DNA from: Lachnospiraceae bacterium
GTDB lineage: Bacteria > Bacillota > Clostridia > Lachnospirales > Lachnospiraceae
Reading direction: 5' to 3'
Assembly: GCA_017625255.1 (NCBI GenBank)
Contig: JAGALK010000145.1
Coordinates: 2,463 to 66,462, forward strand
Length of the DNA: 64,000 bases
In this document: positions 237 through 56,421 of the stretch, in pieces
How the letters are laid out: each line of letters begins with the position of its first letter
Position numbering within the stretch: position 1 is the first letter of the stretch
Position numbers and translations under genes: made by a program
The notes under the pieces: generated by a model
What the model was told of the DNA's origin: nothing
The model's database searches: none
Seen by the model: the letters and a program-made list of their open reading frames with translations, nothing else

Positions 237-346
237 TGACGACAAAAAAAGGAAGTACCCCTATGGAGTTCTTCCCTACTGTTAATCTTTTTTGTCGCAA
301 ATATATGATACAAGTATATAATACATTTATTTTGGGAAAATTGCAA
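237..346 (-). promoter_or_regulatory. promoter-leader cassette A (drives ssb)
   Basis: -35 TTGCAA 346-341, 17-bp spacer, -10 TATTAT 323-318. Leader hairpin 275-251 (GGAAGAACUCCAUAGGGGUACUUCC) followed by U7 (250-244). Two further hairpins lie before the RBS. Confidence 0.6.
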
Positions 347-481
347 GAAAAATTTAAAAAAATAGTGCGATGTAGGCTGAAATTATCTATTTTTATGCGT
401 TTTAAACAAAGAATGTTCATCACAAGAACATTTTTATACTGTTTTTGTGCAAGTTGCACAATAGAAGCGTAGTGATATTCC

Positions 482-510
482 AAAAAAAAAAGCCCCGAAT
501 ATTCGAGGCT
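482..510 (-). terminator. intrinsic terminator after the AAA+ ATPase gene
   Basis: AGCCUCGAAUAUUCGGGGCU followed by U9. Confidence 0.7.
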
Positions 511-547
511 TTTCTGTAATTTCTTGTATCTACTGCACAAATGCGGA

Positions 548-2389
548 TTAAACCTTGCCTGCTTCGTACAGTTCTTTTGCTTCCTGTACCTTGTGTGCTT
601 CATAATAGGTATAGAAAGCACCAGTCAGTATATCTTCGAGGTCTTCATACACCTGCGTCGCTTTTGAAAGCATCGTAGGAAACGCAGAAGCGATAACACA
701 TTCTTCTGTGACTTCGAGTTCTTCCCAACGCATTGATAACAGCATCGCTTTTTTCGCCCAGTTGTCTAACTCACGGGGACCGCAAATACCGTCGGTAATG
801 TCGTGGTCGCCACAATACTGTGCTACTTTGTGACAGCAGTTTACCATTGTGGTAAGCATCTGCTCGTTGGGGAAGCCCGTGTTAGAAATACATCTCTTTA
901 CTAACTCCTTTGTTGTGGGAAGTTGCAAATCGTATCTTTCGTCCACACGGGATAATACTGCCTGCTGTAAACTCTTACAGCCAGCATATCCAAGATTAGT
1001 TGTAAAAATCACAACTGCGTCCGGGTGCCGTCTGATTACTTCGCCCGTAGGGAGAGTAATAACAGCAGTATCTCCATATTCAAGAAGTGCATTTAATTCC
1101 TCTAATACGGTTTCGCGTTTGATAATGGTGGGTTCCTGTATTTCAATTACCCAGCCATTTTCCAAAGCCTCAATAATAGGGCTTTTTACGAAAACGAAAT
1201 CAGAAGAGAGAGAAGAGTTTTCTTCCATACATCTTCTTGAAATTTCATTATAGCAGTCAGAAGGGGAATTATAAACCGTCGGCTTTTTACCAAACAGCTT
1301 TTCATAAGCACCCTCAAAGTCATTTTCCACATCTTCAAAAGTAGGAAGACCTATCTTCTTGCAGATGTTACTTACTTTCTCCACTGCCTTCCTTGTGTTC
1401 GGTAAAAGCTGACCGATAAGCCCAAAACCGTCGGTGTCGGGACCACAAGTAAAAATCTTATGCGGTAATCCGATTTTTTCGGCTATTGACATAGCCAATG
1501 TTGTTTTACCGCTACCCGCAATACCCGTGAACAGAATATTTCTTATGGGTTTTTTAAACATTGTAGAGTGGAAGAGGTCTAACAAAATTGTTTTTACCAG
1601 TTCCGTATCTACATAAGTATCGGGCATTGTCGGCACCAGCATTTCCTCATACGCCGTTAATTTACGGTTGGGATTGAAGAAATACTGTCCTTTTTTAATT
1701 TTTTCCTGCTTCGGTGCCGTTTTTGCGGTCTGTCCCAAGAACTTAACGGGATTAAACCACGGTTTTAACGCCGTATTTTCCGTTACTTTCTTTAAGGTGG
1801 ACTGACGGAAATCTTCCGTCTTCGCCTGCATCGTTCCCGTTGCTGATTTGTAATGGTAATAAAGATTATTTGTCAAAAGACACAACTTCTTACCTAACAC
1901 TTCCAGCATCAACGGATCGTCCCAATCGTCTGCATCGGGTTCTAACTGAACCAACGGCTTTAAGTCATTGACTACCGCTATCAGTTCACTATCTCCCTGT
2001 GCAAGATAATGTCCCAAAAGGCAGGCTTTAAGGACTGTACCTTTGCGGTTTGCACCGTAGGGGAGTAACGCCCCTTTTTCATTCATTTCTCTAACCTTAA
2101 ACAATCCGTCGGATTTACGGTCAGAGAGTGCAATCTGTTCGGTGCGGTTCTCAACAAGGTTATAAACTTCTGTCACAACCAAGTTAGGTTCCGTAGCGAT
2201 ATTGATTGCTTTTTCCGTGTCAAAACCGAACATCTGACGCAAAATCTTATAAAAAGAAGTATCAGTGTTCAGTCCTGTGCTGTTTGATGTACTCCAAGTG
2301 GTCTGCACATCTTTCTGCGACCAACGCAGTTTTAATTTTTTTAATTTTCCGGGAAGTTCCTCCCCGAATGTAAATAACTGGTATGCCAT
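548..2389 (-). CDS. AAA+ ATPase (AAA_5 / MoxR-dynein-like core) with unknown ~280-aa N-terminal region
   Basis: 613-aa ORF with Walker A GIAGSGKTT. The downstream VIEIQEP and VVIFTTNLG...LSRV segments are typical of AAA_5. ATG 2389 sits behind the hairpin-SD element T1, and a terminator follows the stop. Confidence 0.7.
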   Translation of the reverse strand: MAYQLFTFGEELPGKLKKLKLRWSQKDVQTTWSTSNSTGLNTDTSFYKILRQMFGFDTEKAINIATEPNLVVTEVYNLVENRTEQIALSDRKSDGLFKVREMNEKGALLPYGANRKGTVLKACLLGHYLAQGDSELIAVVNDLKPLVQLEPDADDWDDPLMLEVLGKKLCLLTNNLYYHYKSATGTMQAKTEDFRQSTLKKVTENTALKPWFNPVKFLGQTAKTAPKQEKIKKGQYFFNPNRKLTAYEEMLVPTMPDTYVDTELVKTILLDLFHSTMFKKPIRNILFTGIAGSGKTTLAMSIAEKIGLPHKIFTCGPDTDGFGLIGQLLPNTRKAVEKVSNICKKIGLPTFEDVENDFEGAYEKLFGKKPTVYNSPSDCYNEISRRCMEENSSLSSDFVFVKSPIIEALENGWVIEIQEPTIIKRETVLEELNALLEYGDTAVITLPTGEVIRRHPDAVVIFTTNLGYAGCKSLQQAVLSRVDERYDLQLPTTKELVKRCISNTGFPNEQMLTTMVNCCHKVAQYCGDHDITDGICGPRELDNWAKKAMLLSMRWEELEVTEECVIASAFPTMLSKATQVYEDLEDILTGAFYTYYEAHKVQEAKELYEAGKV

Positions 2390-2440
2390 TTCTCTTTACC
2401 TCTCCCGCACCACGCTGGGTACGGTTCCTTTCTTTTTTTC
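2390..2440 (-). promoter_or_regulatory. hairpin-SD translation-initiation element T1 (AAA+ ATPase gene)
   Basis: RNA sense: GAAAAAAAGAAAGGAA-CCGUACC CAGCGU GGUGCGG-GAGAGGUAAAGAGAA-AUG; hairpin at 2424-2405. Confidence 0.5.
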
Positions 2441-2454
2441 TATTTCTGTTTGTG

Positions 2455-2853
2455 TTACGAAAACGGATTAGTCGCCAGCATTTGTGCCGTTTTACGCAGG
2501 TTGTCTTCCTGCTTTTTCGGTTCCTGCTGTTTACCTCCGTTATTTTCCTTACTCTCAAAAGGTATAAACCCTTCGGAGTAAGAGATGTCGATTACTCTAT
2601 AACCGATTGCGTCCCTGCCGTCTTTTGCGTAGGGTAGCATTTCGGCTATAACATCGACTAGGCTTCCTTTTTTGGCTTTTAACTTACTAATGCGTGTTGC
2701 CTGCTCGTCAAAAGCTGAAAGCCAGATTTTCAGATATTGTCCGTTGTAGTGCTTGTTAGCCGAACAAATCGGAAAATCTACTCGTTTTCCTTCATTAGAA
2801 AACTTCAAATCCCCGCTGATGCGGAAATTTGTCAATATAGCTTTTCCTGCCAT
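2455..2853 (-). CDS. possible OB-fold ssDNA-binding-like protein (132 aa)
   Basis: Start trimmed to ATG 2853 (SD aaggag). It is SSB-sized, has a KKGSLVDV...RVIDISY beta-rich core and a flexible Q/E/K-rich tail ending NPFS. The resemblance to SSB is weak. Confidence 0.4.
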   Translation of the reverse strand: MAGKAILTNFRISGDLKFSNEGKRVDFPICSANKHYNGQYLKIWLSAFDEQATRISKLKAKKGSLVDVIAEMLPYAKDGRDAIGYRVIDISYSEGFIPFESKENNGGKQQEPKKQEDNLRKTAQMLATNPFS

Positions 2854-2880
2854 TTTTTCTCCTTTCTTATTTCTTATTTT

Positions 2881-3024
2881 TGACAACAAAAAAAGGAAGT
2901 TACCCCGTAGGAGTATCTTCCTCTTGTTAGTCTTATTTTGTTAAAATTTGTTACAAGTATATAATACAATAATATAGGAAACTTTGCAAGCATAAAAAAA
3001 AGAGAGTAGCAATAGCCACTCTCT
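2881..3024 (-). promoter_or_regulatory. terminator-promoter-leader cassette B
   Basis: Family terminator 3024-3001 plus U-run. -35 TTGCAA 2989-2984, 17-bp spacer, -10 TATTAT 2966-2961. TTGTAACAA start region; leader hairpin 2921-2895 plus U7 (2894-2888); outer arms GACUAACAA/UUGUUGUC. Confidence 0.65.
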
Positions 3025-3033
3025 AATTTTATT

Positions 3034-3417
3034 TTAGGGTAATGATATATGTTCCGGAGTAATAAGCAGTACGAGTTTTTCGTCTACCTTTCCGATGTGC
3101 ATTTCACACACTTCCGACGGAATACACTCATTATCTGATTTCCAAATCGTATTTACCATAATAGGTAAATCAATTCCTTGCAGATACTTCGTGTGTCCTT
3201 CGCATATATCGTCGGTCACAAGCGAGAATGATTTACTTCCGGTACAAGTCTGTAAATTTCTCATTCCTTCTACTGTCTGATAGAATTTATCTATCTTATT
3301 CCACGCTTCCGTCATAGAATTTGCATCTTTGACATCTTCGCAGAGAGAAACCGCAACCTGCCTTATTTCTTCTGCATAATTTACGGCTAATTTCAAGCCA
3401 ATTTTTGCATCACGCAT
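3034..3417 (-). CDS. hypothetical protein (127 aa)
   Basis: ATG 3417 with SD aaggagg; 2-nt gap to the upstream gene; no motif recognised. Confidence 0.6.
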   Translation of the reverse strand: MRDAKIGLKLAVNYAEEIRQVAVSLCEDVKDANSMTEAWNKIDKFYQTVEGMRNLQTCTGSKSFSLVTDDICEGHTKYLQGIDLPIMVNTIWKSDNECIPSEVCEMHIGKVDEKLVLLITPEHISLP

Positions 3418-3419
3418 AC

Positions 3420-3959
3420 TTACGCCTCCTTTCCGATGAAAAATGAAATATGATTAGCGTCTTTATCTAACGCTTCCATAATTTCTTTTTCTTCGTACAG
3501 GTAGGAACGGTGTGTTGTAGTAGTTCCAGTTTTACGACCATACATATAGTCATAACACACCTTTTCCCATTCCGCAGGAGAGTAGAAGATTTCTTCCGGT
3601 GTGCCTTTATTTACGGTTACACCAGTAAATACTTCTGCATAACATCTTCTGTTTTCTGTCAATTCGCCCCAAGTGATAGAACGCTTTAACATGCGCAGAA
3701 GATGCTCTGCGTAATCATAATAAGTGCAATAACGGCTTCCAATTTTTAAGTCAAATCCGTCTGCTTCCTTCATAGGAAGGCGGTCTTTCTTATAATTTTC
3801 AGCCATTTCCTTAAATTCTTCCTCGGTGTAAATTTTACCCCGGAAATCATCACGGCTTCTTCCAGCGTTATCGTTATTGCACCCCGACAAAGAGAGATGT
3901 AAAAGCCTGCCGTCTGACAATCGGACAATTTTGGTTTCAAAAATGATACTATAACTCAT
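3420..3959 (-). CDS. hypothetical protein (179 aa)
   Basis: ATG 3959 with SD ggaggtg; tightly packed; no motif recognised. Confidence 0.6.
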   Translation of the reverse strand: MSYSIIFETKIVRLSDGRLLHLSLSGCNNDNAGRSRDDFRGKIYTEEEFKEMAENYKKDRLPMKEADGFDLKIGSRYCTYYDYAEHLLRMLKRSITWGELTENRRCYAEVFTGVTVNKGTPEEIFYSPAEWEKVCYDYMYGRKTGTTTTHRSYLYEEKEIMEALDKDANHISFFIGKEA

Positions 3960-4329
3960 TATTTGTCACCTCCATATTGTCAATTATTTTATAGGTGCCA
4001 ATCAAAGCCTCTTTTTCTTTCTGTAATTCCTCGATTTTTTTTGTAATTCCGGGGATTTCCGTATAGCAAATATAATTAAAAAATTTAAGTTTTGTATCCA
4101 TTTCATTATCGCTTAATGTAATAAGAAACAAATACTTTGAAACGCAGGAATACGGCATTACATTATCAAGAATATTCTTCGGTACTCTTGTATATGAGTT
4201 GTAATATATATAACCTTTTTTTCCTTCTTCTCTTTGCACTGTATATACTTTTTCTGTTTCCTTCACTGTATATTCGTACTTTGTTATCTTCTGGTTTTTA
4301 ATATCTAAAATAAATTCGTATAACTTCAT
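3949..4329 (-). CDS. hypothetical protein (126 aa)
   Basis: ATG 4329 with SD tggagga; 11-nt overlap with the downstream gene. Confidence 0.6.
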   Translation of the reverse strand: MKLYEFILDIKNQKITKYEYTVKETEKVYTVQREEGKKGYIYYNSYTRVPKNILDNVMPYSCVSKYLFLITLSDNEMDTKLKFFNYICYTEIPGITKKIEELQKEKEALIGTYKIIDNMEVTNNEL

Positions 4330-4357
4330 TTGATTTCCTCCATTTTCTTCTAATCTT

Positions 4358-4558
4358 CTAAACCATAATTCCTATTTCTATTGATCCGTCTGCCATAGGT
4401 AGTGCGTCCCAACTTTTCACAGTTGCACAAAGTAAATCCTTACGGATTGTCTTTAATTCCGCATAAGTTCCTTCAAAAACCACATTTTCATTTGTATCTT
4501 CTGATATGTTGATAATATGGTTATCTCGGGTGCCTTTTAAAAACTCTCTTATTTTCAT
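4358..4558 (-). CDS. hypothetical protein (66 aa)
   Basis: ATG 4558 with SD taggagg. Confidence 0.55.
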   Translation of the reverse strand: MKIREFLKGTRDNHIINISEDTNENVVFEGTYAELKTIRKDLLCATVKSWDALPMADGSIEIGIMV

Positions 4559-4612
4559 AAGTTCCTCCTAAAATAGAAGAGGGCGGTTGTGAAACCACCC
4601 TCTCGTTAATAG

Positions 4613-4906
4613 TTACTGCAACACGGTCAACCAAGCGTCCGTGTCGATAAAATCCTGCCAGTTCATATCTATCAGTCCCAGCCCGTCGGCTATCTGATAG
4701 AGCCATTCCTTACATTCAACGCTTCCGTCTTCTGCAAGGTTTTTGGCGAGATTTTTCACTGTTTCTGTCAAGGTATCATTCTCTTTGGAATAACAATAGT
4801 CTGCATAATATAAATACGCATTTGTCGCTACTTCCTTCGGAGTGAAAGAACCTCGCCAGTTGACATTGCCATATTCGGCAATGTCATAAAAGTCTTCATA
4901 ACCCAT
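4613..4906 (-). CDS. hypothetical protein (97 aa)
   Basis: Track ORF 4613..5056 trimmed to ATG 4906, which has SD taaggagg. The longer form would overlap the upstream gene. Confidence 0.55.
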   Translation of the reverse strand: MGYEDFYDIAEYGNVNWRGSFTPKEVATNAYLYYADYCYSKENDTLTETVKNLAKNLAEDGSVECKEWLYQIADGLGLIDMNWQDFIDTDAWLTVLQ

Positions 4907-4916
4907 ACGAACCTCC

Positions 4917-5108
4917 TTACTGTGCCTGCTTTTCGCACCACCCATCGGATAAGTCGTATAAGTGGAAGTGTGAAGCTGTGCTGTATTCTGCAACTGCCTC
5001 TTCTTCCATTTCTTCTGCACAGTACCACATATTGATTGCGTCCTGTGCCAAGACACCGATAACTACCGCAAAAACAGTTGTTACGAGCATAAATCCCACA
5101 AATTCCAT
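4917..5108 (-). CDS. small membrane protein (63 aa)
   Basis: ATG 5108 with SD aaggagg; N-terminal hydrophobic helix FVGFMLVTTVFAVVIGVLA; first gene after cassette C. Confidence 0.55.
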   Translation of the reverse strand: MEFVGFMLVTTVFAVVIGVLAQDAINMWYCAEEMEEEAVAEYSTASHFHLYDLSDGWCEKQAQ

Positions 5109-5140
5109 GTGAGCCTCCTTTCTTCGCTTTTTAGCGATTT

Positions 5141-5287
5141 GTGACAACAAAAAAAGGAAGTACCCCCTACGGAGTTCTTCCTTAATTGTCAGCCTTATTT
5201 TGTTGTTGATTGTTACAAGGACATTGTAGCAAATTATAGAACACTTTGCAAGTATAAAAAAGAGGGTAGCAGTGTACCCTCTTTTTT
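5141..5287 (-). promoter_or_regulatory. terminator-promoter-leader cassette C
   Basis: Terminator 5287-5256. -35 TTGCAA 5251-5246, 17 bp, -10 TACAAT 5228-5223. Leader hairpin 5181-5156 plus U7. Mini-hairpin CGCUAAAAAGCG 5136-5125 before the SD. Confidence 0.65.
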
Positions 5288-5306
5288 AATCAAATATGTA
5301 TTTTAA

Positions 5307-5480
5307 TTACTTTTCCTCTCCTGTAAGAAGTACAACTTTGTCACTGTGTCCGACATCACAGAGTTCTAAATTATCAAAACTTCTTACATTCGGGAAATTA
5401 CTATATCCATCGGTAAAAACAAACTCAAATTCAAAATCTGCGTATTGTTCGCATAATTTAGCCAAATCTTTTCCTGACAT
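5307..5480 (-). CDS. hypothetical protein (57 aa)
   Basis: Trimmed to ATG 5480 (SD aaaggag). The upstream part of the track ORF crosses a terminator-like hairpin. Confidence 0.5.
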   Translation of the reverse strand: MSGKDLAKLCEQYADFEFEFVFTDGYSNFPNVRSFDNLELCDVGHSDKVVLLTGEEK

Positions 5481-5587
5481 ATTATTTCTCCTTTCACGAT
5501 AAAATGTGGATTTGGTTTCAAACCTAATTATTCTTACTCTTAAAATAATAGGAGAGTAGAATACTCCACTCTCCATAATCTTGTTTC

Positions 5588-6859
5588 TTATACGGCTTCT
5601 TCTACTGCACATTCCTTGATTTCAATTTTCTTCAAGGAAACGGGTTCATCAAGTTTCTTCTTCGGTGCGATTTTGTAATTACGCACTTCCTTGATTACCC
5701 CGCCGGCTTTTTGTGCCTTCTTATTCTCTTTGACAATTTCTTTTGTAATCTTGTCATACAAGGCTTTGTCAAATTTCTCTACAAGACACTGTTTATAAAG
5801 GTCCGGCTGTTCGGCTTTAAGCCGTTCTTCATCGAAACCTGTGCGGGTTTCTTTGTATTTCAATGAAATAGCCACATACTTTTCATCATCAAGACGGTAA
5901 GTAGCGTATTCCGTTCCCGCTTCGGCAAAAGAGAGAATAGCGTTTACCAAAGCATATTCCTCGGCTTCGATTGTTTCCAATGCCTTTTCTGCCTTTTCCT
6001 TCCTTGCGGTCAACTCTGTTGCCTTCTCAATCAGTTCGTAAATTTCGTAACTGTCGGGAAGTTCCACCGCAGGGGCGTTTTCAGCAGGTTCGCCGTAAAG
6101 TCTTGTGTAATATTCCGCAAGCATCTTCTCGCTTTTTACACAAGGTTCGGGTTCCTTGCCTTCGTAGCAACATTCAATGAAATCTGCTACCGAAGACATC
6201 ATCTGCTGTTCAATATCCATATCTCTGCGGATAAGGATAATTGCGTTTTCTGCCTTTGTAAAGCCCCAGCTACAAGTGAGATATACGAACTCCACATTGG
6301 CAATCGCCATATAGTACCGACACTGGTACTCGTAGGATTTCGGCGGTATGCCTAATTTCCAATTTTTAATGTCGCTGTAAGAACTTGTAGTTTTACATTC
6401 CACCAAGCCTTCAACGCCGTTTACTTTAACTCTGCGGTCAAAGTTACCGAGGGCGAAAGGGTAGTGAGGGTGCTGATACATTGTGGTATCGTTCCATATT
6501 TCAATATCCTTCACGCCCTCGTCCTCTTTCATTTTACGGACGAACATATTTGCCACAAATTCTTCCAATTCGTGACCTGCTCTTAAAGCCTCTTCGTTCA
6601 TCGGCTTTTCTACCGCAGTTTTTAATCCGGTCTTCTGGTGGAAGAGTTCAAGGTTGGTCTTAAATTTCGACACTCCAAGAATTACTCCCACATCGGAACC
6701 GCCTGCGGTGTACTCAATGTACTCCGGGTGCGTCGGATCGTCGTAATGAGGACCGTGCTTTCTGCACCCTAACCATTCGGGGCTTCCGTCCACATATTTG
6801 CCTAATGCGATAGGCTTGTAGTTGGTGTTGATAGTTCCTGCGTTTGATACTTTACTCAT
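5588..6859 (-). CDS. YqaJ/lambda-exonuclease-like PD-(D/E)XK recombination exonuclease with ~150-aa C-terminal coiled-coil extension
   Basis: Trimmed to ATG 6859 (SD aaaggagg). Contains GGSDVGVILG and FDRRV...GLVECKTT (D...ExK), as in YqaJ viral recombinase family nucleases. First gene after cassette D. Confidence 0.7.
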   Translation of the reverse strand: MSKVSNAGTINTNYKPIALGKYVDGSPEWLGCRKHGPHYDDPTHPEYIEYTAGGSDVGVILGVSKFKTNLELFHQKTGLKTAVEKPMNEEALRAGHELEEFVANMFVRKMKEDEGVKDIEIWNDTTMYQHPHYPFALGNFDRRVKVNGVEGLVECKTTSSYSDIKNWKLGIPPKSYEYQCRYYMAIANVEFVYLTCSWGFTKAENAIILIRRDMDIEQQMMSSVADFIECCYEGKEPEPCVKSEKMLAEYYTRLYGEPAENAPAVELPDSYEIYELIEKATELTARKEKAEKALETIEAEEYALVNAILSFAEAGTEYATYRLDDEKYVAISLKYKETRTGFDEERLKAEQPDLYKQCLVEKFDKALYDKITKEIVKENKKAQKAGGVIKEVRNYKIAPKKKLDEPVSLKKIEIKECAVEEAV

Positions 6860-6889
6860 AAAGTACCTCCTTTCTTGAATTTGTTTTTT

Positions 6890-7040
6890 TGACAACAAAA
6901 AAGGAAGCACCCCTACGGAGTATCTTCCTTATTGTTAGTCTTTTTTGTTAAGTTGTAGTTACAAGTATATATTACAATAATATGGGAAACTTTGCAAGCA
7001 TAAAAAAAAGAGAGTAGCAGTAGCCACTCTCTCCTTTTTT
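6890..7040 (-). promoter_or_regulatory. terminator-promoter-leader cassette D
   Basis: Terminator 7040-7003. -35 TTGCAA 6997-6992, 17 bp, -10 TAATAT 6974-6969. Leader hairpin 6928-6903 plus U6. Confidence 0.65.
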
Positions 7041-7045
7041 TTTCT

Positions 7046-7516
7046 TTACGCAACTACCATATAACCATTATAACGGTCATTGAGCTTAATTTTATGAGTT
7101 TCATAATCGAAATCTTCTGTTTCTTCTATGAAAATCTGTGAACTCAAAGTTGCATCAGTGACTTCTCCGTTTTTCCATTTTAGAACGAAAATTTTGTAAT
7201 TTCCCTGCGACTGATCGGAAAATTCGTGGTAGAGTTCTTCTTCTCCCAGCATTTCGGACAGCTTTTTTGCGACAAACATCGGAGTTGCGTTTGCTGTCTG
7301 CAAGAAAATAGTATCTTCTTTTGTGTCAGAAAAGTAAAGTCTTCCGTCGCAACCCCAGTTAGCATATCGCCAACCAAAAATACCCGTCGGATCATATTCT
7401 TCCGCATACTGGGCGTATTCTTCCGGTCTTGACGGAATTACGGCATTAAAATCTTCGCCGTCCCATAATTCTGTCAAGCCTTTCGCATTAAAAATGTTTC
7501 TGTAAATGTTACTCAT
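7046..7516 (-). CDS. hypothetical protein (156 aa)
   Basis: Trimmed to ATG 7516 (SD aaggag); first gene after cassette E. Confidence 0.6.
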   Translation of the reverse strand: MSNIYRNIFNAKGLTELWDGEDFNAVIPSRPEEYAQYAEEYDPTGIFGWRYANWGCDGRLYFSDTKEDTIFLQTANATPMFVAKKLSEMLGEEELYHEFSDQSQGNYKIFVLKWKNGEVTDATLSSQIFIEETEDFDYETHKIKLNDRYNGYMVVA

Positions 7517-7546
7517 AGGTTCTCCTTCCTGCCTTTTTAGGCATAG

Positions 7547-7700
7547 TGACAACAAAAATAGGAAGTACCCCTTGCGGAGTTCTTCCTATTGTTAGTCTTT
7601 TTTTGTCGTCAAGATTTTTGTTACAGTGTCATTGTACTATATTTTGCAGTAAATTTCAAGCATAAAAAAGAGAGTAGCAGTAGCCCACTCCCTTTTTTTA
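7547..7700 (-). promoter_or_regulatory. terminator-promoter-leader cassette E
   Basis: Terminator 7700-7665. -35 TTGAAA 7659-7654, 17 bp, -10 TACAAT 7636-7631. Leader hairpin 7586-7561 (GCAA loop) then UAUUUUUG. Mini-hairpin 7542-7531. Confidence 0.65.
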
Positions 7701-7703
7701 TTT

Positions 7704-7964
7704 TTATGTTCTTAATAAATCTCTCACGATGCGTCCACTAAAACCAAAGCTGTTGTCACTTTTTGCGTATTGCATTTGCAAATACTTACGGTCTACATAT
7801 TTTGCCAATATTAGATTTTCGCCGTTATGTAGGATAGTTCCGTCTTTATTCGGGATTACTTTGCCTAATTGTATCTCTTGCAATACCACAGCTTTCATTG
7901 CATCATAATTCGGGTAAATTACTCTCAAAAAACTTTCAAATTTTACTTCGTCAATTTGTATCAT
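7704..7964 (-). CDS. hypothetical protein (86 aa)
   Basis: ATG 7964 with SD gggagga; 1-nt gap to nrdG. Confidence 0.55.
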   Translation of the reverse strand: MIQIDEVKFESFLRVIYPNYDAMKAVVLQEIQLGKVIPNKDGTILHNGENLILAKYVDRKYLQMQYAKSDNSFGFSGRIVRDLLRT

Positions 7965-7965
7965 A

Positions 7966-8427
7966 CTATTTTTCCTCCCGTAATCTGATTACTTTCTGAT
8001 TTGTACTTCCCGCCCATTCATAATTTTCGTCCCTTAAATCAGACATATACTTCCCGGTCACAATAACATCTAATCCTTGCAGAAGTGGAAGCGTACTTAT
8101 TTCTTCGTATTCATATCCGGTATAGAGCCAAATTGTTTTTTCGGGATATGTTTCTCTGATTTCGTCAATCAGCATTGCAATCACATCACGGTTTGCAGTG
8201 TGAAGCGGATCGCCACCACTAAATGTAACACCGTCTATATGCGGTTTATCCAATTCCTTAAATAGTTCAGCCTTTGTTTCTTCGGTAAAGTCTAAACCGC
8301 AATTTATATCCCAAGTGATAGGATTGTGGCAACCGGGGCAGTGATGTTCACAGCCCGAAACCCACAACACTACACGCAAACCGTCACCATTACGCATATC
8401 GTCTTTGGTTATGTTATGATACTTCAT
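7966..8427 (-). CDS. nrdG: anaerobic ribonucleotide reductase activating protein (radical SAM)
   Basis: Trimmed to ATG 8427 (SD taggagg). GLRVVLWVSGCEHHCPGCHNP is the NrdG-type CxxxCxxC cluster motif. Lies directly downstream of nrdD. Confidence 0.85.
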   Translation of the reverse strand: MKYHNITKDDMRNGDGLRVVLWVSGCEHHCPGCHNPITWDINCGLDFTEETKAELFKELDKPHIDGVTFSGGDPLHTANRDVIAMLIDEIRETYPEKTIWLYTGYEYEEISTLPLLQGLDVIVTGKYMSDLRDENYEWAGSTNQKVIRLREEK

Positions 8428-8440
8428 ATTATAGTACCTC

Positions 8441-10582
8441 CTACATAGATTTTCTGTCGGCAATTTCTGCCATTTTAGCCGGATTAAGCCTTGTATCTCC
8501 GTGTACCCTTGAAAACGATAAGTACCCGTTCATTCGGTCTATTTTTGTAAGGTTACGGCTACCGCATTTCGGACAGAAATCCATTTCCAATTCTTGATGT
8601 CCGCAATCGTCACAATATGCCAACGACATATTCAAGCCTTCATAAAAACCTAATTTCATAGCCCTGCGTACCAGTACAATCATTGCTTTTTTATTGTAAT
8701 TGATAGGATAGCGTACATACTGGATTTTACCGCCGTTAAAATAATTCCAAAATCTTCCTTCCAAATCCTGCTTTTCAATAGGAGATATGTCCTCTGTAAC
8801 ATGACAATGGAAGCTGTTAGATACATACTCACGGTCTGATACACCCTTAATAATACCAAATTCCTGCCTAAACTGCTTAATCTGCTTACCGCAAAGGCTT
8901 TCTGCGGGTGTGCCGTATACAGCGTATAATCTGCCGTCTTCTTTCTTAAATTCAGCAATCTTATCATTGATATACTGCATTACTTCTAGCGCAAAAGCAC
9001 CGTCTTCTGTAATAGATTTTCCATTATATAGCTGTTGCAATTCGTTTAACGCTGTTACGCCAAAGGAAGCAGTTGCGGATTTTAATACTGGTTCAATCTT
9101 ATCGGATAATTGCAAGTGACCGCCATAAAATCCACCTTCACAAAAGCCTAACGGGTTCATACTTGCACGCATCTGCGATAAATAGTCATAGGTTCGGAGA
9201 TGTAATTTTCTTATCATCTCCATATAGTAGTCTAATTCATCATAAAAGTTGGTGTTTGCCCTTAATGATTTTGCGTAAATCATCGGCAAATGAAGAGATA
9301 CGGCACCGATATTAAATCTTCCAATAAATACGGGTGTATCGTTTTCGTCAGCTGGTTCCATACCGCCTCTTTCATACCACGGCGATAAAAATGCCCTGCA
9401 ACCCATAGGAGAAATTGCTTTTTTGTATTTCTTATAAATACTTGCCACATATCCTTCTCCGGTCAGTGATAACCAGTCCGGGTACATCGTTTTTGCGGAA
9501 CATTCAATGCCTGCATTGAAGACATCTTCCATTTCCCCGCCTTCGCCGTGTAATTCTTCATCATAAAGAAATACTAACTTGGGGAAAAGTACGGGTTTCT
9601 TATTTTCTTTCTTTCCTTGTCCGTTCTTTCGTACTTCTAAAATAGCTTTGCAAAGTTCTTTGCCCCATTTGGTATTAGAAAGACCGAAAGTAGCAGTAAT
9701 AAAAGGATAATCGCCCCGGCTACTTGCTACGGTATTAAATTTATACTCCCAGCCTTGAAAACCTTGTCGCATATCTTCGCATACATCTTCATACGCTAAT
9801 TGTTCTGCATCTGCAAGGTTCATATTGCATTTTTGAGTGTATTTTTTTAAGTATTTCTGGTAGCTTTTTTCTGCATATTTTTCTAATATATCGTCTACTT
9901 CGGGAATAGTAAAGCCACCATATTGTTGTGAAGCACTCATAAGGACCAAATCGCCAATTACATCGAAAGCAGTGTCTAATGTCTTGGGTTCGTTGTACCA
10001 CATATTACTCATATTAAAACCGCCTTCCAGCACTTTTTTAATATTGAATAAACAGCAGTTCATTGTATCTTGCCTTGCAGATTTATCGTGAATATAGATA
10101 TATCCAATACTTTCTGCAATTTTTTCGTTCTGATTAAGGAAATATTCAAGATACTGGGCGGTTTCTAATGTTTCCAGCTTCTTTACTCTCTTTGTACTTA
10201 CGAGTGTAAGGTCAGAATTTGCGTTATCCTTTCCACCGTTACTTTGTTCCCCTAAAAACTGAATAGACTGACAATCTCTCCATACCTTTGCGTTCATTTC
10301 CGCTTCCTTCTTAATCCAGTTTCGGTATGAACGATAGCTTTCCGCTACATCGGGACGGACTTCCTGTAATGCCAATTCCACGAAAGAGTGTAAGCGAGAT
10401 ACTTCAATAACATTATCAGAACGGGAAAATACATTTTTTTCAACCAATCCTACGATTTTGCCGATTTCTTCTTCTGAAAACTCTGTTGCAATTCGTTCTG
10501 CGGATTTTTCTATCGCCTTTATAATCTTCCCGGCGTTCCAGTTTTCTAAATTTCCAGCTTTTTTTCGCACATAATATTTCAT
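8441..10582 (-). CDS. nrdD: anaerobic (class III) ribonucleoside-triphosphate reductase
   Basis: Trimmed to ATG 10582 (SD aggggg). Has an N-terminal ATP-cone-like segment, a C-terminal Zn ribbon CDDCGH...CPKCGS and a glycyl-radical region RMNGYLS. 713 aa with no interruption. Confidence 0.9.
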   Translation of the reverse strand: MKYYVRKKAGNLENWNAGKIIKAIEKSAERIATEFSEEEIGKIVGLVEKNVFSRSDNVIEVSRLHSFVELALQEVRPDVAESYRSYRNWIKKEAEMNAKVWRDCQSIQFLGEQSNGGKDNANSDLTLVSTKRVKKLETLETAQYLEYFLNQNEKIAESIGYIYIHDKSARQDTMNCCLFNIKKVLEGGFNMSNMWYNEPKTLDTAFDVIGDLVLMSASQQYGGFTIPEVDDILEKYAEKSYQKYLKKYTQKCNMNLADAEQLAYEDVCEDMRQGFQGWEYKFNTVASSRGDYPFITATFGLSNTKWGKELCKAILEVRKNGQGKKENKKPVLFPKLVFLYDEELHGEGGEMEDVFNAGIECSAKTMYPDWLSLTGEGYVASIYKKYKKAISPMGCRAFLSPWYERGGMEPADENDTPVFIGRFNIGAVSLHLPMIYAKSLRANTNFYDELDYYMEMIRKLHLRTYDYLSQMRASMNPLGFCEGGFYGGHLQLSDKIEPVLKSATASFGVTALNELQQLYNGKSITEDGAFALEVMQYINDKIAEFKKEDGRLYAVYGTPAESLCGKQIKQFRQEFGIIKGVSDREYVSNSFHCHVTEDISPIEKQDLEGRFWNYFNGGKIQYVRYPINYNKKAMIVLVRRAMKLGFYEGLNMSLAYCDDCGHQELEMDFCPKCGSRNLTKIDRMNGYLSFSRVHGDTRLNPAKMAEIADRKSM

Positions 10583-10601
10583 ATTTATACCCCCTAAAAA
10601 G

Positions 10602-10642
10602 AAAAAAAAGACAGCTTTCACAAATTTTTTGTAAAAACTGCC
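10602..10642 (-). terminator. terminator-like hairpin inside the nrdD leader
   Basis: GGCAGUUUUUACAAA-AAA-UUUGUGAAAGCUGUC followed by U8. Located between the nrdD promoter and RBS. Confidence 0.5.
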
Positions 10643-10680
10643 TTTTCATTGAAAAAGTTTTGTTGTTATAAAGTAAACTT

Positions 10681-10732
10681 ATAATATCATAAGCGGTAAA
10701 AATTTGCAAGAACTATTTTGTTAATGTATACT
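10681..10732. promoter_or_regulatory. back-to-back divergent promoters sharing one palindromic -35 hexamer
   Basis: TTGCAA at 10704-10709 is its own reverse complement. Plus strand: 17 bp then TATACT 10727-10732 (toward 10768). Minus strand: 17 bp then TATTAT 10686-10681 (toward nrdD). Confidence 0.55.
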
Positions 10733-10767
10733 ATACAGTAATAAATAATATAGAATGGAGTGGTTTT

Positions 10768-11427
10768 ATGCTTTTTTTTGAAGAAGAGAAGATTTCGACA
10801 GCTGACAAGCCTAAAAATACTCAAAAAAAGGCTGATTTGTCTGTTTTTTATAAGAAATTCTCCGATATGGAAGTATTGATCCGTGAAATTCAGCAAGCAT
10901 CTGACAGTAAGAGTGCTGTTGCTTTATCTAACCGTCTATTATCATCTGTTAATCTGCTATATCGGGACATGAAAGAAGTGCTTTCAAGGTACCTTTTTTC
11001 GACTTATCAAGAACCTCCTGCTGTATTACAGCGTCCGGTAAAAGCTACGGTAGATTATTCAGATAAGGTACTCTATATTTCTTTTGATTGCCTTCCTGCT
11101 AAAAGAATAAAGAACATTTATGATATAAACCACACTTTTTCTTATTGTTTCGGCAATGCCCTTGATGATGCAAATTCTTGGTACCGTCAAATCAATGGTA
11201 TTATTCCACGGTACCGAGAAAAAGTAGTGATATGGTATATCGTTCATTATAAAAAAGAAACGAATGTATGCGATTATGATAATTATGATTTTAAGCCCAT
11301 AACCGATAGTATTTCTTCTCTTTTTTTGCAGGACGATGCACCGCAGTTTGTTTCACAGTTTTTTGATGCGTGTGAAGATACCAATGATTATTTAGAAATC
11401 CGGGTACTTCCCCAAACGCAGTTTTAA
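10768..11427 (+). CDS. protein with C-terminal RusA-like Holliday-junction resolvase motif (219 aa)
   Basis: ATG 10768 with SD aatggag. CDYDNYDFKPITDSISSLFLQDDAPQFV matches the RusA DxDNxxKxxxDxL...DD signature. The N-terminal ~90 aa are unassigned. Confidence 0.45.
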   Translation: MLFFEEEKISTADKPKNTQKKADLSVFYKKFSDMEVLIREIQQASDSKSAVALSNRLLSSVNLLYRDMKEVLSRYLFSTYQEPPAVLQRPVKATVDYSDKVLYISFDCLPAKRIKNIYDINHTFSYCFGNALDDANSWYRQINGIIPRYREKVVIWYIVHYKKETNVCDYDNYDFKPITDSISSLFLQDDAPQFVSQFFDACEDTNDYLEIRVLPQTQF

Positions 11428-11439
11428 GGAGATTTTAAT

Positions 11440-45175: not shown

Positions 45176-45183
45176 GTATTCTT

Positions 45184-45236: not shown

Positions 45237-45404
45237 GAAGGAACCGCTTGATACTACCCGTCGGCGTTTACCAATGGTTCCTTCTTTATAATAATCTATG
45301 TTCTATTTAGGTTACACAAAGGCACTTGAAGGAGGCACTTTGCCTCAACTTCGTCTGTGCGGTGTAACCGTCCCTGCATCTCTAATGTGTAGAAATGCAG
45401 GGCA

Positions 45405-45532
45405 ACAACAAAACCAAAAAAGAGAAGTCACTTTTACGGAATATCCCCGTAAAGTTCTTCTCTCTATTGTTAGCATATTTTGTTGTTTTTATTTAATAAG
45501 TATAATATACACTATTATTTTTATGATTGCAA
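45405..45532 (-). promoter_or_regulatory. promoter-leader cassette G (diverged stem)
   Basis: -35 TTGCAA 45532-45527, 17 bp, -10 TATATT 45509-45504. The longer leader hairpin 45463-45421 has a different sequence but the same position, followed by U6. Confidence 0.55.
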
Positions 45533-47383: not shown

Positions 47384-47535
47384 CGACAATAAAAAAAGGA
47401 AGTACCCCTTGCGGAGTTCTTCCTATTGTTAGTCTTTTTTTGTCGTCAAGATTTTGTTACAAGGTTATTGTAATACACTTTGCAGGAAATTTCAAGATAA
47501 AAAAAGAGAGTGACCGTAGCCACTCCCTTTCTTAA
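47384..47535 (-). promoter_or_regulatory. terminator-promoter-leader cassette H
   Basis: Terminator 47535-47500. -35 TTGAAA 47495-47490, 17 bp, -10 TACAAT 47472-47467. Leader hairpin 47423-47398 plus U7. Mini-hairpin 47380-47369. Nearly identical to cassette E. Confidence 0.65.
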
Positions 47536-51782: not shown

Positions 51783-51925
51783 TGACAACAAAAAAAGGAA
51801 GTACCCCTACGGAGTTCTTCCTTTTTGTTAGTCGATATTTTGTTAAAATTTGTTACAAGATTATTGTAATATATCTTTTATAGAATTGCAAGCATAAAAA
51901 AGAGAGTAGCAATGCCACCCTCTTT
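51783..51925 (-). promoter_or_regulatory. terminator-promoter-leader cassette I (drives methyltransferase gene)
   Basis: Terminator 51925-51895. -35 TTGCAA 51891-51886, 17 bp, -10 TACAAT 51868-51863. Leader hairpin 51821-51797 plus U7, then AAAAAAAAGAAAGGAGG RBS directly. Confidence 0.65.
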
Positions 51926-55180: not shown

Positions 55181-55204
55181 ATTTGGTAGTTAGTTGTTAC
55201 TTAC

Positions 55205-55251
55205 ACAAGCCTCCCCTACACCATCGTTTTTTACGGGTTCGGTGCTTGCTA
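55205..55251 (-). other. conserved leader RNA motif, copy 2
   Basis: Same arms as copy 1, with a different central hairpin (CGU...ACG). Lies between the cassette J hairpin and element T5. Confidence 0.4.
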
Positions 55252-55259
55252 TGCAGTTT

Positions 55260-55420
55260 TGACAACAAAAAAAGGGAAGATACCCCTACGGAGTTTCTTC
55301 CTTCTGTTAGTCTTTTTTTGTTGTTATAATTATTACAAGTATACTTTACAATATTTCGGAGAAAATTGCAAGCGTTATTTTTGCAATAAAAAAGGCACAC
55401 CGTTTGGTATGCCCTTTTCT
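55260..55420 (-). promoter_or_regulatory. terminator-promoter-leader cassette J
   Basis: Terminator 55420-55389 (different sequence). -35 TTGCAA 55371-55366, 17 bp, -10 TAAAGT 55348-55343. Leader hairpin 55301-55275 plus U7. Confidence 0.6.
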
Positions 55421-55665
55421 TAATTTACTTTTATTTTCGTCTGCAAATCACTTTCTACAAACGAAATCCCTTCTTTTGTTAAAGAGTAACCCGAAGGATT
55501 TTTTACTGCATAACCTATCTCTACCAAATGCTTAAAATCCGCATCGGTACCAAGGCTATGGTTTTTTGGGGCGTAACGCACTTTTCTATTATGCGTCCAC
55601 GCCATAAGTCCAAGGGTTTCACGCATCAGCAGGCGTTCTTTCTTGGATATAATTACATAATCCAT
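55420..55665 (-). CDS. hypothetical protein (81 aa)
   Basis: ATG 55665 with SD taggaggtg; terminator after the stop. Confidence 0.5.
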   Translation of the reverse strand: MDYVIISKKERLLMRETLGLMAWTHNRKVRYAPKNHSLGTDADFKHLVEIGYAVKNPSGYSLTKEGISFVESDLQTKIKVN

Positions 55666-55675
55666 AAAACACCTC

Positions 55676-56248
55676 CTAGCGTATGAACTGAAAAATATTC
55701 ATTTGTTTCCATTCAGCCCATTCCTCTTCTTTAATTTCTTTTGCAGGTTCAATTTCTCTTACCCACTGACCTTCTTCGTCAGCCTGTAATCTGAAACCCA
55801 CAATATTAAATGGTAGTCCCGTGATACCGTTTAGTTTTCCCCACGGTCTTACCTTTATTGTTACTTCCAATATGGAAGTCTGTGTTACGGTGTTGTTTCG
55901 GGTGTCGTAAAATTCCCCCAGTATCACACCGCAATCAATGCTCTCCGAAAACTTATCGCCTTCATCGAGCATCACTGATTGCTTCGCAATTCGCTTTAAG
56001 TTATAAGCATCGCCAAAAAACTCCTGCAAAGCAATTTTCACTTCCGTAAAAGAATAAAACGAATACCGTTCTTTCGGTTTTCTTTCATTCAGTTCTTTTA
56101 CGGTGTACTCACAGCCGATATGCTTCTTACTTAACGCAAAACTCATTTGCTTATCAAGCAGTCCCGGAGTGAGTTTTTTTGTTGCATCGGATATTTGTTG
56201 ATATGCCACATCAATTAAATCCGATACATCTGCTAATCTCCTTTCCAT
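55676..56248 (-). CDS. hypothetical protein (190 aa)
   Basis: ATG 56248 behind element T6 and cassette K. Confidence 0.55.
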   Translation of the reverse strand: MERRLADVSDLIDVAYQQISDATKKLTPGLLDKQMSFALSKKHIGCEYTVKELNERKPKERYSFYSFTEVKIALQEFFGDAYNLKRIAKQSVMLDEGDKFSESIDCGVILGEFYDTRNNTVTQTSILEVTIKVRPWGKLNGITGLPFNIVGFRLQADEEGQWVREIEPAKEIKEEEWAEWKQMNIFQFIR

Positions 56249-56297
56249 AGTAATTACCTTTGCCGGACCACGACGGGTACGGCTCCTTTCTTTTTTT
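56249..56297 (-). promoter_or_regulatory. hairpin-SD element T6
   Basis: AAAAAAAGAAAGGAG-CCGUACC CGUCGU GGUCCGG-CAAAGGUAAUUACU-AUG; hairpin 56282-56263. Confidence 0.5.
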
Positions 56298-56302
56298 ATT
56301 TA

Positions 56303-56421
56303 CGACAAAAAAAGAGAGAAACCTAAAATTAGATTTCTCTCTTTGTCAGCCAATTTTGTTGATACCCTTTTTAAAAGGAATAATATACATTTATATTAAA
56401 GCATTACTATTCCTTTTTCAA
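56303..56421 (-). promoter_or_regulatory. promoter-leader cassette K (diverged stem)
   Basis: -35 TTGAAA 56421-56416, 17 bp, -10 TAATAT 56398-56393. Leader hairpin 56342-56313 (AGAGAGAAA.../...UUUCUCUCU) plus U7, followed by element T6. Confidence 0.55.

Follow-up and report, generated by a model that had tools for sequence, protein, structure and literature searches.

The DNA analyzed here is a 64,000-nt stretch of contig JAGALK010000145.1 (positions 2,463 to 66,462, forward strand) of the Lachnospiraceae bacterium assembly GCA_017625255.1, hereafter the window, and our subject is a repeated cassette of 110–160 bp (GC 0.26–0.35), made of a promoter, a short leader and a leader terminator, eleven copies of which (A to K) punctuate a long train of minus-strand genes. 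The window has a GC content of 36.5% and no close match among phage or plasmid records. A Rep3-family initiator gene (57647–56439, minus strand) with an iteron array upstream (58690–57650), the resemblance of its product to the replication initiators of Butyrivibrio and Clostridium megaplasmids, and a gene for a TraG/VirD4-type coupling protein that lies 3.5 kb past the window end on the same plasmid, co-directional with the train and also present in relatives, identify the replicon as a conjugative plasmid of ~105–110 kb from gut Clostridia. Exact-protein look-ups found the same element in gut metagenome assemblies: the sequences L005/L076 are 99.99% identical to window positions 1–16859, and the identical Rep is encoded on a 110,639-bp contig of a Lachnospiraceae metagenome-assembled genome (MAG). 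More than half of the plasmid is a single co-directional gene train, which starts at rep and is punctuated by the cassettes right downstream of it. Most of the ~95 open reading frames (ORFs) of the window had no family match; the recognizable genes include those for RecG-like and RecD2-like helicases, NrdD, NrdG, a type IA topoisomerase, a YqaJ-type exonuclease, an integrase and YopX-domain proteins. A phage origin was considered and dropped, as megablast and tblastn against phage genomes gave no close phage and PHROGs scans of the large ORFs found no phage structural families; three human-gut 'Bacteriophage sp.' contigs encoding a 30–34% identical AAA_5 protein carried no cassette.

The number, strand and positions of the copies had been proposed by a first-pass annotation made from the sequence alone, and were confirmed by extraction and by a search with a covariance model (R1), which was built from nine close copies and applied unfiltered to both window strands. 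This search, of the kind the annotation had called for, returned exactly 11 sites, all on the minus strand, and no additional site in the window. Nine cassettes scored 100–116 bits (E 1e-18 to 1e-22), and the low-scoring K (44 bits) and G (41 bits) represented diverged subtypes; the next-best match in the window had an E-value of 0.012, with none below 0.01. Two more full-scoring cassettes were located just past the window start on the same plasmid (L076:16245–16354 and 19901–20010), bringing the plasmid to at least 13 copies. Read on the minus strand, the shared plan consists of a hairpin followed by a T-run (in some copies), TTG[C/A/T]AA, a 17-bp spacer, TAnnnT, CTTGTAAC, an A/C-rich stretch, GACTAACAA, a GC-rich hairpin (GGAAGAACTCC-loop-GGGGTACTTCC), T5–7 and GTTGTCA, and then a GGAGG-type ribosome-binding site (RBS). 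Copies E and H, which had been described as nearly identical over ~150 bp, turned out to be similar only, with 88% identity across 155 alignment columns and ~94% within the leader half. No Rfam family matched at its gathering score anywhere in the window, and E-value scans of the cassette regions gave only chance-level matches far under the gathering score. A likeness of the A-rich leader to the tail of the preQ1-I riboswitch was dropped, since there was no P1 hairpin and no Rfam match.

Cassette K (56300–56421, 44.3 bits) heads the first unit after rep, with its −35 element at 56421–56416 and −10 element at 56398–56393; its leader carries CAACAA and UGACAA motifs 13 nt apart, a hairpin of another stem sequence (56343–56312), U7 and a GUCGUAA tail, and its first genes encode proteins of 190 aa (56248–55676) and 81 aa (55665–55420, basic). 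Cassette J (55260–55420, 115.2 bits) follows a distinct upstream terminator (GGGCAUACC...GGUGUGCCC) and has its −35 at 55371–55366, −10 at 55348–55343, hairpin at 55301–55275, U7, the tail and an extra leader module (AGCAAGCACCGAACC...GGGGAGGCUUGU) ahead of a 105-aa, signal-peptide-like first gene (55130–54813). In cassette I (51783–51925, 108.4 bits), the upstream terminator (51925–51899) is followed by the −35 (51891–51886), −10 (51868–51863), hairpin (51823–51795), U7, tail and a 322-aa first gene (51759–50791). Cassette H (47384–47535, 104 bits) likewise has an upstream terminator, then the −35 (47495–47490), −10 (47472–47467), hairpin (47424–47397), U7, the tail ATTGTCG, a small hairpin and a 192-aa first gene (47353–46775). 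The diverged cassette G (45403–45532, 41 bits; −35 45532–45527, −10 45509–45504) carries CAACAA and UAACAA motifs, a longer two-part hairpin (45464–45420), U6 and a GUUGUUG tail, and a structured leader of ~280 nt separates it from the gene at 45125/45005–44454. Cassette F (24590–24701, 116 bits) consists of the −35 (24701–24696), −10 (24678–24673), hairpin (24632–24602), U7, tail and a small hairpin, and precedes a 71-aa gene (24557–24342).

The remaining five copies of the window are A to E. Cassette E (7547–7700, 108.8 bits) shows an upstream terminator, −35 (7659–7654), −10 (7636–7631), hairpin (7590–7557), the U-run AUUUUU, the tail and a small hairpin GCCUAAAAAGGC, followed by a 156-aa first gene (7516–7046), and cassette D (6890–7040, 108.6 bits) an upstream terminator, −35 (6997–6992), −10 (6974–6969), hairpin (6930–6901), U6 and tail, followed by a gene for a 423-aa YqaJ-type exonuclease (6859–5588). 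Cassette C (5141–5287, 99.9 bits) has an upstream terminator, a −35 at 5251–5246 and an extended −10 (TGC TACAAT) at 5228–5223, then the hairpin (5183–5154), U7, tail, a small hairpin CGCUAAAAAGCG and the RBS of a 63-aa hydrophobic protein (5108–4917). In cassette B (2881–3024, 114.9 bits), the upstream terminator (3024–3001, U8) precedes the −35 (2989–2984) and −10 (2966–2961), three UAACAA motifs, a hairpin (2923–2893), U7 (2894–2888) and the tail GTTGTCA, and the first gene (2853–2455) encodes 132 aa. Cassette A (237–346, 109.9 bits; −35 346–341, −10 323–318) lacks an upstream terminator; its hairpin (277–249) and U7 (250–244) are followed by the tail, which ends at 237, an extra two-hairpin leader module (236–170), an RBS and the start of ssb at ~165. 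The public ssb gene call (267 aa; L005:16320–17123 / L076:11850–12653) runs through cassette A with no in-frame stop, and translation almost certainly begins instead at the ATG that follows the cassette RBS (MNKVIL..., window ~165). Among the first genes named by the annotation, ssb after A (PF00436, called as a gene in L005/L076) and the exonuclease after D stood, and the others were weak or unmatched: the N6_N4 DNA methylase match of the supposed methyltransferase after I was weak (E 8e-6, just below the Pfam cut-off), and the supposed OB-fold protein after B gave no family or PDB match.

The promoter features held up in a regular-expression check, in which the −35 hexamer was TTGCAA in seven copies (A, B, C, D, G, I, J), TTGAAA in three (E, H, K) and TTGTAA in one (F), the spacer was exactly 17 bp in 11 of 11, and the −10 hexamer was TATTAT, TACAAT, TAATAT, TAAAGT or TATATT, with a TG upstream of the −10 in several copies. 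The register of the K promoter was confirmed by its orthologues in two related plasmids, which read TTGAAA-17-TACAAT and TTGAAA-17-TAAAAT. Promoter-like hexamer pairs as such occurred in the window at no higher frequency than in shuffles, so the significance of these promoters rests on the conserved family rather than on the hexamers. The CTTGTAAC element starts 5 nt past the −10, and transcription is therefore predicted to start at its G or A; a TTGTAAC heptamer straddles this predicted start site as part of the promoter module. Upstream of the promoter, variants of GAGAGUGGCUACUGCUACUCUC followed by U6–8 are present in B, C, D, E, H and I, in agreement with the six common terminators noted before, and J has a different terminator, so that 7 of the 11 copies have one and A, F, G and K have none. 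These terminators have predicted free energies of −15 to −24 kcal/mol, and their U-run ends 4 nt before the −35, at the position of an UP element. Ahead of F, the stop codon of an 89-aa Xre/HTH_3 gene (24974–24705, minus strand), the last gene of its unit and the only recognizable Cro/CI-type protein in the window, lies 4 nt before the −35.

The leader downstream of the start is ~40 nt long, A/C-rich, nearly free of G, without AUG and unstructured. YRAC(A/T)R motifs are strongly enriched in it, with 2.7 per ~41-nt leader compared to ~0.17 expected from a background of 0.004 per nt. Each leader contains two or three YRACAA motifs, the last two of which are 13–14 nt apart and the last of which lies directly against the hairpin; the diverged K and G retain the same spacing, as do the K orthologues m_K and n_K. 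A leader terminator was found in all 24 distinct cassettes of four plasmid variants (−14 to −20 kcal/mol, U5–8 right after the stem). The 11 window copies all end, as the first-pass annotation had it, in a hairpin (−13.6 to −19 kcal/mol) with 5–7 U immediately after, ahead of the RBS. In an alignment fitted to the covariance model, which favors the structure, 92.7% of pair cells were standard compared to 48–71% with slid partners; changes on both sides were seen in 8 pairs versus 1–3 in the slid controls, and all 6 lower-stem pairs covaried. In the K and G subtypes, a stem of unrelated sequence occupies this place, which independently supports a constraint on structure.

The leader offers no alternative structure that could switch this terminator. 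The leader has no segment complementary to the terminator's 5′ arm, minimum-free-energy folds never pair that arm upstream, and there is no leader peptide, as the leader is G-poor and has no AUG; together these results make an RNA-intrinsic switch unlikely. A zipper-type attenuator was rejected because the cassettes show the reverse geometry, with the terminator as the central hairpin between complementary flanks, so that no antiterminator conformation can form before the termination decision. A boxB-like reading of the small hairpin GCCUAAAAAGGC was also rejected as a general switch, given its presence in only 4 of 11 copies and its position downstream of the terminator.

Beyond the U-run, the tail GUUGUCA is complementary to GACUAACAA in the RNAalifold consensus, and in several copies also to the upstream GACAACAAAA; 94% of the cells of this outer helix (GACUAACAA with UUGUUGUC) are paired. 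At the DNA level, GACTAACAA and TTGTTGTC form an inverted repeat, and TTGTnACAA is a 4-1-4 palindrome. Tail and start codon are separated by 24–72 nt in nine copies, by 130 nt in J and by at least ~280 nt in G. The interval between tail and RBS holds a short A-rich spacer in B, D and I, and a small hairpin with a UAAAAA loop and a covarying stem in C, E, F and H. Larger structured modules at this place move between cassettes: that of A recurs after the E orthologue in a relative and in L067, and that of J recurs in the long leader of G. The first module reads CCACCCAGUCCGGAGAAACCGGAGGUGG then GCACCAAAGAAGAAAAGUUGGUGC and was found after A (170–236) and after other cassettes in relatives (L004:5822–5880; L067:14895–14925); the second, AGCAAGCACCGAACC...GGUGUAGGGGAGGCUUGU, was found in the J and G leaders (55190–55258 and ~45165–45215). 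Neither had an Rfam match.

Several other unit boundaries of the train, all on the minus strand, resemble the cassettes in part. A twelfth site (10583–10709) in front of nrdD has the cassette architecture in a diverged sequence (promoter, AACAACAAAAC, hairpin with U8, RBS; R1 17 bits, E ~1), with TTGCAA-17-TATTAT at 10709–10681, AUAACAACAAAAC, a 20-bp hairpin with U8 at 10647–10597, and the nrdD ATG at 10582. A promoter-only relative (28672–28803; R1 25.4 bits, E 0.017 for 28731–28672) combines a terminator (28803–28773), TTGCTA-17-TATAAT (28731–28703) and the start region ATACTTATAAC, TTGTAAC included, directly with an RBS and has no attenuator, which shows that the promoter and attenuator modules are separable. 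A second class of boundaries, consisting of a terminator, a sigma-A-type promoter and an RBS with no leader attenuator, occurs at 16036–16106, 21790–21860, 22325–22389, 28703–28803, 35584–35649 and 62830–62900; the train thus mixes attenuated and non-attenuated units.

Outside this plasmid, the cassette was found in close relatives. The related contig JAZQHB010000008.1 from an Acutalibacteraceae MAG (105,178 bp; Rep 79% identical, DNA 83–94% identical) has a gene order that wraps around its ends, consistent with a circle. In this Acutalibacteraceae plasmid, L004 accounts for 6 cassettes and L066 for 4, most of them at orthologous positions; at least 2 were found in a third variant (L067/L068, Rep 71% identical) and 3 in a fourth (L077). 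Plasmids and chromids with a Rep of 28–45% identity (L069–L075), which are unrelated replicons, had no cassettes. Pattern scans with CTAACAR...GGAAGA...CTTCCYTTTTT in IMG/VR and GGAAGAW..CTCC..CTTCCYTTTTT in JGI metagenomes gave 3 and 55 loci, respectively, all of them ordinary terminators and none a cassette by R1, and blastn of cassette I gave one chance-level 42-nt match in PLSDB and nothing in phage genomes. The cassette is therefore specific to a narrow plasmid clade, and the scatter over unrelated genomes by which the annotation would have recognized a selfish repeat resembling a miniature inverted-repeat transposable element (MITE) was absent from the viral, metagenomic, plasmid and phage collections searched.

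Comparison with the Acutalibacteraceae plasmid revealed a mosaic history. Recognizable orthologues exist for A (m_A, 98% in the promoter half and 90% in the leader half), C (m_C), D (m_D) and J (m_J). The promoter and leader halves of one cassette often differ in their nearest relatives, and within-plasmid paralogues can beat orthologues: the E leader is 94% identical to its paralogue H compared to 81% to its orthologue, the m_B promoter is 87% identical to m_E compared to 66% to B, and B, D and the copy from beyond the window start form a group inside a single plasmid. Such a pattern would be expected of gene conversion among paralogues. Among 23 BLAST segment ends against the related plasmid, 7 fell within 32 nt of a cassette edge, where ~1 was expected. 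The changes at these edges include a gene after H that is swapped for an unrelated one in the relative, the loss of the G cassette and its genes from the relative (L066), a 144-aa gene inserted just before J in the relative, a 127-aa gene before B that is missing there, and an extra leader module after the E orthologue. The cassettes are best read as doubling as recombination joints, which would be homogenized and at whose edges gene modules would be gained, lost or replaced. Of the two possibilities raised by the first-pass annotation, homogenization by recombination and constraint as a block, both seem to apply, the former on account of the mosaic halves and the break points at cassette edges and the latter on account of the compensatory hairpin changes and the motif spacing that persists in K and G.

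The positions, common orientation and gene starts of the copies fit the proposal that terminator-promoter-leader units split the train, and its division into separately promoted units is very likely. Conservation also extends beyond the needs of a promoter, as had been claimed, given the conserved family recovered by R1 and the constrained leader hairpin. The order of elements, a promoter, a terminator ~40 nt on and an RBS 10–50 nt further with no promoter in between, is a signature of attenuation. The probable, if far from assured, explanation of the cassettes is in our view that the separately promoted units form a plasmid regulon whose gate is a leader attenuator common to them. In 7 of the 11 copies the upstream terminator would stop transcription arriving from the preceding unit, and transcription would restart from a host sigma-A-type promoter (TTGCAA, 17 bp, TAnnnT). 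The new transcript would begin with the G-poor leader and its YRACAA motifs and then meet the strong leader terminator, so that by default most transcripts would end as RNAs of ~65–75 nt, and ssb, the exonuclease, the methylase, the helicases and many ORFans would be expressed only upon read-through. As the switch itself, a trans-acting factor that reads the YRACAA pair, in the nascent RNA or in DNA, and suppresses termination at the at least 13 leaders together is the likeliest candidate. The pair is kept where the stem sequence changes and so looks like a candidate site for a trans-acting antiterminator, and with the same leader before at least 13 units, one factor could switch the whole train, making it a single regulon comparable to plasmid 'establishment' regulons. 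TRAP-, HutP- and PRD-type systems similarly use repeated short motifs beside or overlapping a terminator. The observation of the cassettes is solid and the attenuation-regulon mechanism plausible; promoter activity, termination efficiency and the existence and nature of an antitermination factor we infer from the DNA.

Several results weigh against this explanation. No NusG/KOW, ANTAR, CAT/PRD, Q or N family was detected by Pfam, PHROGs and NCBIfam scans of the ~95 window ORFs. The sole RNA-binding lead is a weak S1-domain similarity (NCBIfam E 1.7e-6, PDB bS1 E 0.0026; not confirmed by Pfam) in a 447–449-aa protein at the window edge, whose gene (63417–63998, minus strand, continuing past the window; full length L079:2888–4231) lies between the coupling protein gene on one side and the metallo-β-lactamase (MBL)-fold gene and replication region on the other; the protein is possibly RNA- or single-stranded DNA (ssDNA)-binding. 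Weak regulator leads thus comprise this S1-like protein, the basic 81-aa protein of the K operon and the Xre protein upstream of F; PDB sequence searches for the candidates were weak or empty, and single-sequence AlphaFold models of the S1-like fragment (predicted local distance difference test, pLDDT, 33) and the 81-aa protein (pLDDT 50) were too poor for a fold search. The TTGTAAC at the start site, together with the Xre and 81-aa proteins, leaves room for a DNA-binding repressor. The tail GUUGUCA is conserved past the termination point, which a pure attenuator model does not explain. The outer helix has one compensatory pair only and several uncompensated mismatches (in A, H, m_C, m_D and m_H), and its reality is uncertain. 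Finally, 'establishment' or 'leading region' status is putative, and oriT and the relaxase were not located. The more specific proposal that one plasmid RNA-binding factor, such as the S1-like or a small K-operon protein, reads the paired YRACAA and switches on together the ~65-kb train, with its putative establishment, DNA-metabolism and anti-defense genes, e.g. after conjugative entry, is put forward as a doubtful one; were it true, abundant ~70-nt terminated leaders might also buffer the factor.

Among the alternatives, control of the promoters by a repressor, with no antitermination, is unlikely but to be taken seriously. The TTGTAAC at +1, the ACAA repeats and the inverted TTGTTGTC would serve as operators for a plasmid repressor such as the 81-aa basic or the 89-aa Xre protein, the hairpin would only dampen or insulate, and a burst of expression would follow transfer, on the model of the Reg576 repressor and its establishment gene regulatory sequence EGeRS2. 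The position of TTGTAAC over the predicted start, its presence in the attenuator-less relative at 28731, the TTGTnACAA palindrome and the inverted repeat of GACTAACAA and TTGTTGTC would all suit an operator, and the Xre gene ends right ahead of cassette F. A repressor-based establishment regulon with repeated promoter regions has been experimentally established in p576 (PMC6294495), where the promoter region of the regulator itself differs too, as does K, the first cassette after rep. However, the p576 operator TTATCCC and its complement were absent from all 24 cassettes with their flanks, and no ribbon-helix-helix (RHH) family was detected among the Pfam matches of the window ORFs, most small ORFs being matchless and ~45 kb of the plasmid lying outside the scan. 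The 13–14-nt motif spacing is out of helical phase, the model of the 81-aa protein is poor, and a full-strength terminator with compensatory stem changes in every copy would be left unexplained. Repression is also compatible with the attenuated regulon, and both controls could coexist. We consider it more doubtful that the units are constitutive and the hairpin is a fixed element, acting as a partial terminator that tones down strong promoters, as a back-up terminator against read-through from upstream, or, upon pairing of the tail with GACUAACAA, as a stable 5′ stem-loop or RNase III site for protection or processing of the mRNA. In read-through RNA, pairing of the tail with GACUAACAA or the upstream GACAACAAAA would produce an imperfect ~25-bp stem (−21 to −28 kcal/mol), consistent with the high proportion of paired outer-helix cells; in A, F, G and K, which have no upstream terminator, the leader hairpin would be the sole stop for upstream transcription; and the scans of the window ORFs found no trans factor. 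Yet a dampener would have no need of YRACAA motifs that are conserved, evenly spaced and retained by the diverged subtypes, a back-up role would be redundant in the seven cassettes with their own upstream terminator, and the outer helix contains the uncompensated mismatches listed above.

The other alternatives carry much less weight. The ~70-nt terminated RNAs might themselves be the product, as at least 13 copies of a small RNA (sRNA) titrating e.g. Hfq or pairing with UUGUUG targets; a strong promoter, an unstructured A-rich seed and a Rho-independent terminator are the typical layout of a trans-acting sRNA, and many copies would give a high dosage, but every copy lies right upstream of an RBS and the downstream genes have no other promoter, so that a role in cis is needed anyway, and no Rfam family matches, which makes this very improbable. 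A function in ssDNA, as Frpo/ssi-like promoters or sso-like priming sites on the transferred strand that would permit early expression or synthesis of the complementary strand after conjugative entry, is more improbable again. All copies are co-oriented on a conjugative plasmid, with ssb and a methylase among the first genes as in the F/IncI leading regions, where several operons each have an ssDNA promoter (PMC12672017, PMC11541004), and the ~60-nt imperfect palindrome of the cassette would fold in ssDNA too. However, 200–211 nt of template-strand DNA folded to only −22.5 and −25.1 kcal/mol compared to a screen threshold below −75, and the −35 and −10 elements are not rebuilt in a stem, being unpaired or not opposite each other, and form a normal double-stranded 17-bp promoter. 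Nor is the ssoA CS-6 motif TAGCGT carried by the cassette hairpin loops. We give almost no credence to a selfish MITE-like repeat that spreads in the replicon with no regulatory role: many copies, sequence exchange among within-plasmid paralogues and indels clustered at the edges would suit such a repeat, but the copies share one orientation with the genes, are intergenic and mostly 24–72 nt before a start codon, have no terminal inverted repeats or target-site duplications, occupy orthologous positions in relatives, and are absent from the JGI pattern loci, IMG/VR, PLSDB and phage genomes.

The closest described behavior is that of the promoter-early stem-loop (PeSL) elements, composite terminator/promoter cassettes that lie beside ORFans in T4-like phages and have been proposed to drive the shuffling of modules by homologous recombination (PMC2839356, PMC4122927). 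As in PeSLs, a stem-loop terminator lies directly upstream of a sigma-70-type promoter with a 17-nt spacer (here in 7 of 11 copies), and there are many co-oriented copies in ORFan-rich regions, sited at indels or replacements between close relatives. Unlike PeSLs, in which a Shine-Dalgarno sequence comes directly after the promoter, the present cassettes place a ~75-nt motif leader and a second strong terminator in between; moreover, PeSLs belong to hyperplastic regions of T4-like phages, whereas the host here is a Rep3/iteron Clostridia plasmid with a type IV secretion system coupling protein, and there is no sequence similarity. A second comparison is with the establishment gene regulatory sequences of Bacillus conjugative plasmids, EGeRS2 of p576 and EGeRS1 of pLS20 (PMC6294495, PMC8708921). 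These too are repeats upstream of several operons of a Gram-positive plasmid, and they govern a regulon of variable genes, most of them unknown, with anti-restriction or DNA-metabolism genes and a mosaic content; EGeRS2 shares the strong sigma-A promoter and EGeRS1 the block to upstream read-through. In contrast to the cassettes, EGeRS2 has a dual heptamer operator TTATCCCnnTTATCCC bound by the RHH repressor Reg576, and EGeRS1 is 420–750 bp long, GC-rich and multi-hairpin with no constitutive promoter, compared to 110–160 bp, a GC content of 0.26–0.35 and one main hairpin here. There are 4–5 EGeRS copies per plasmid versus at least 13 cassettes, and neither EGeRS has a promoter-proximal intrinsic terminator as its conserved core.

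In IncI/F leading regions, six operons are transcribed from ssDNA promoters (PMC12672017), and the Frpo/ssi arrangement is similar in that leading-region operons (ssb, methylase, anti-defense) each follow a repeated structured element in one orientation (PMC12672017, PMC11541004). There, large ssDNA stem-loops reconstitute the −35 and −10 within the stem and are inactive when double-stranded, unlike the linear double-stranded promoter and weak ssDNA fold found here. The cATT zipper attenuator of pLS20 (PMC13401043) and conAn processive antitermination (PMC8191782, PMC8955417) also gate plasmid genes by an intrinsic terminator in the 5′ leader, as a safety against spurious transcription, but they occur once per element at the head of a conjugation operon, with a 456-nt leader and an RNA-intrinsic antiterminator, whereas here a ~75-nt leader without alternative structure recurs at least 13 times before accessory-gene units. 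The cassette resembles a PeSL unit with an added leader attenuator, would be used like an establishment gene regulatory sequence, and is not a member of any of the compared families.

For conjugative plasmids of Gram-positive and anaerobic gut bacteria, the timing of establishment and anti-defense genes is known only from a few Bacillus plasmids, with a repressor-based system and a structured element, and otherwise from the enterobacterial ssDNA promoters. The cassettes would represent a third design, in which an ordinary promoter, a terminator and a short motif common to the copies recur at least 13 times. Should read-through depend on a factor, they would form a compact multi-target antitermination system and a handle on the early genes, mostly ORFans, of uncultured Clostridial megaplasmids. 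The clustering of gene gain, loss and replacement at cassette edges would extend to plasmids the idea of 'mobile regulatory cassettes' developed for T4-like phages, and would help to explain modular accessory trains.

Other features of the plasmid were noted along the way. The iteron array (57650–58690, minus strand) contains at least 12 iterons of ~20 nt of the AAAAGTTATGTAGTATGGCGGG and TGTAGAAAAACAGTAAAAGT types directly upstream of rep, and a perfect TTGACA-18-TATAAT promoter is present in this region at 57732–57703; the array and rep make up the vegetative replication origin of the plasmid. Genes for a 613-aa AAA_5 (MoxR-like) ATPase, ssb and a 749-aa CobT-type VWA protein stand together (548–2389; L076:11850–15010 beyond the window start), and distant homologues of the ATPase/VWA pair are encoded on human-gut 'Bacteriophage sp.' contigs and a conjugative plasmid of Enterococcus faecium. 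A perfect palindrome, GAGTATCATTATGATACTC, occurs three times (~60790–60815, 63013–63033 and 63060–63080); two of the copies belong to the 610-bp gap that separates the S1-like from the MBL-fold gene, where they lie within the 17-bp spacer of TTGACA promoter-like sites on the plus strand, and these palindromes look like repressor operators. Cassette-like fragments within that gap (62900–63160) consist of TTGTAACAAACAAC...TTTTTGTTGTCA with the RBS-like AAGAAAGGAGG on the plus strand, with no convincing ORF, and of GACAACAAAAAATTTTGTTAC on the minus strand, and may be cassette relics.

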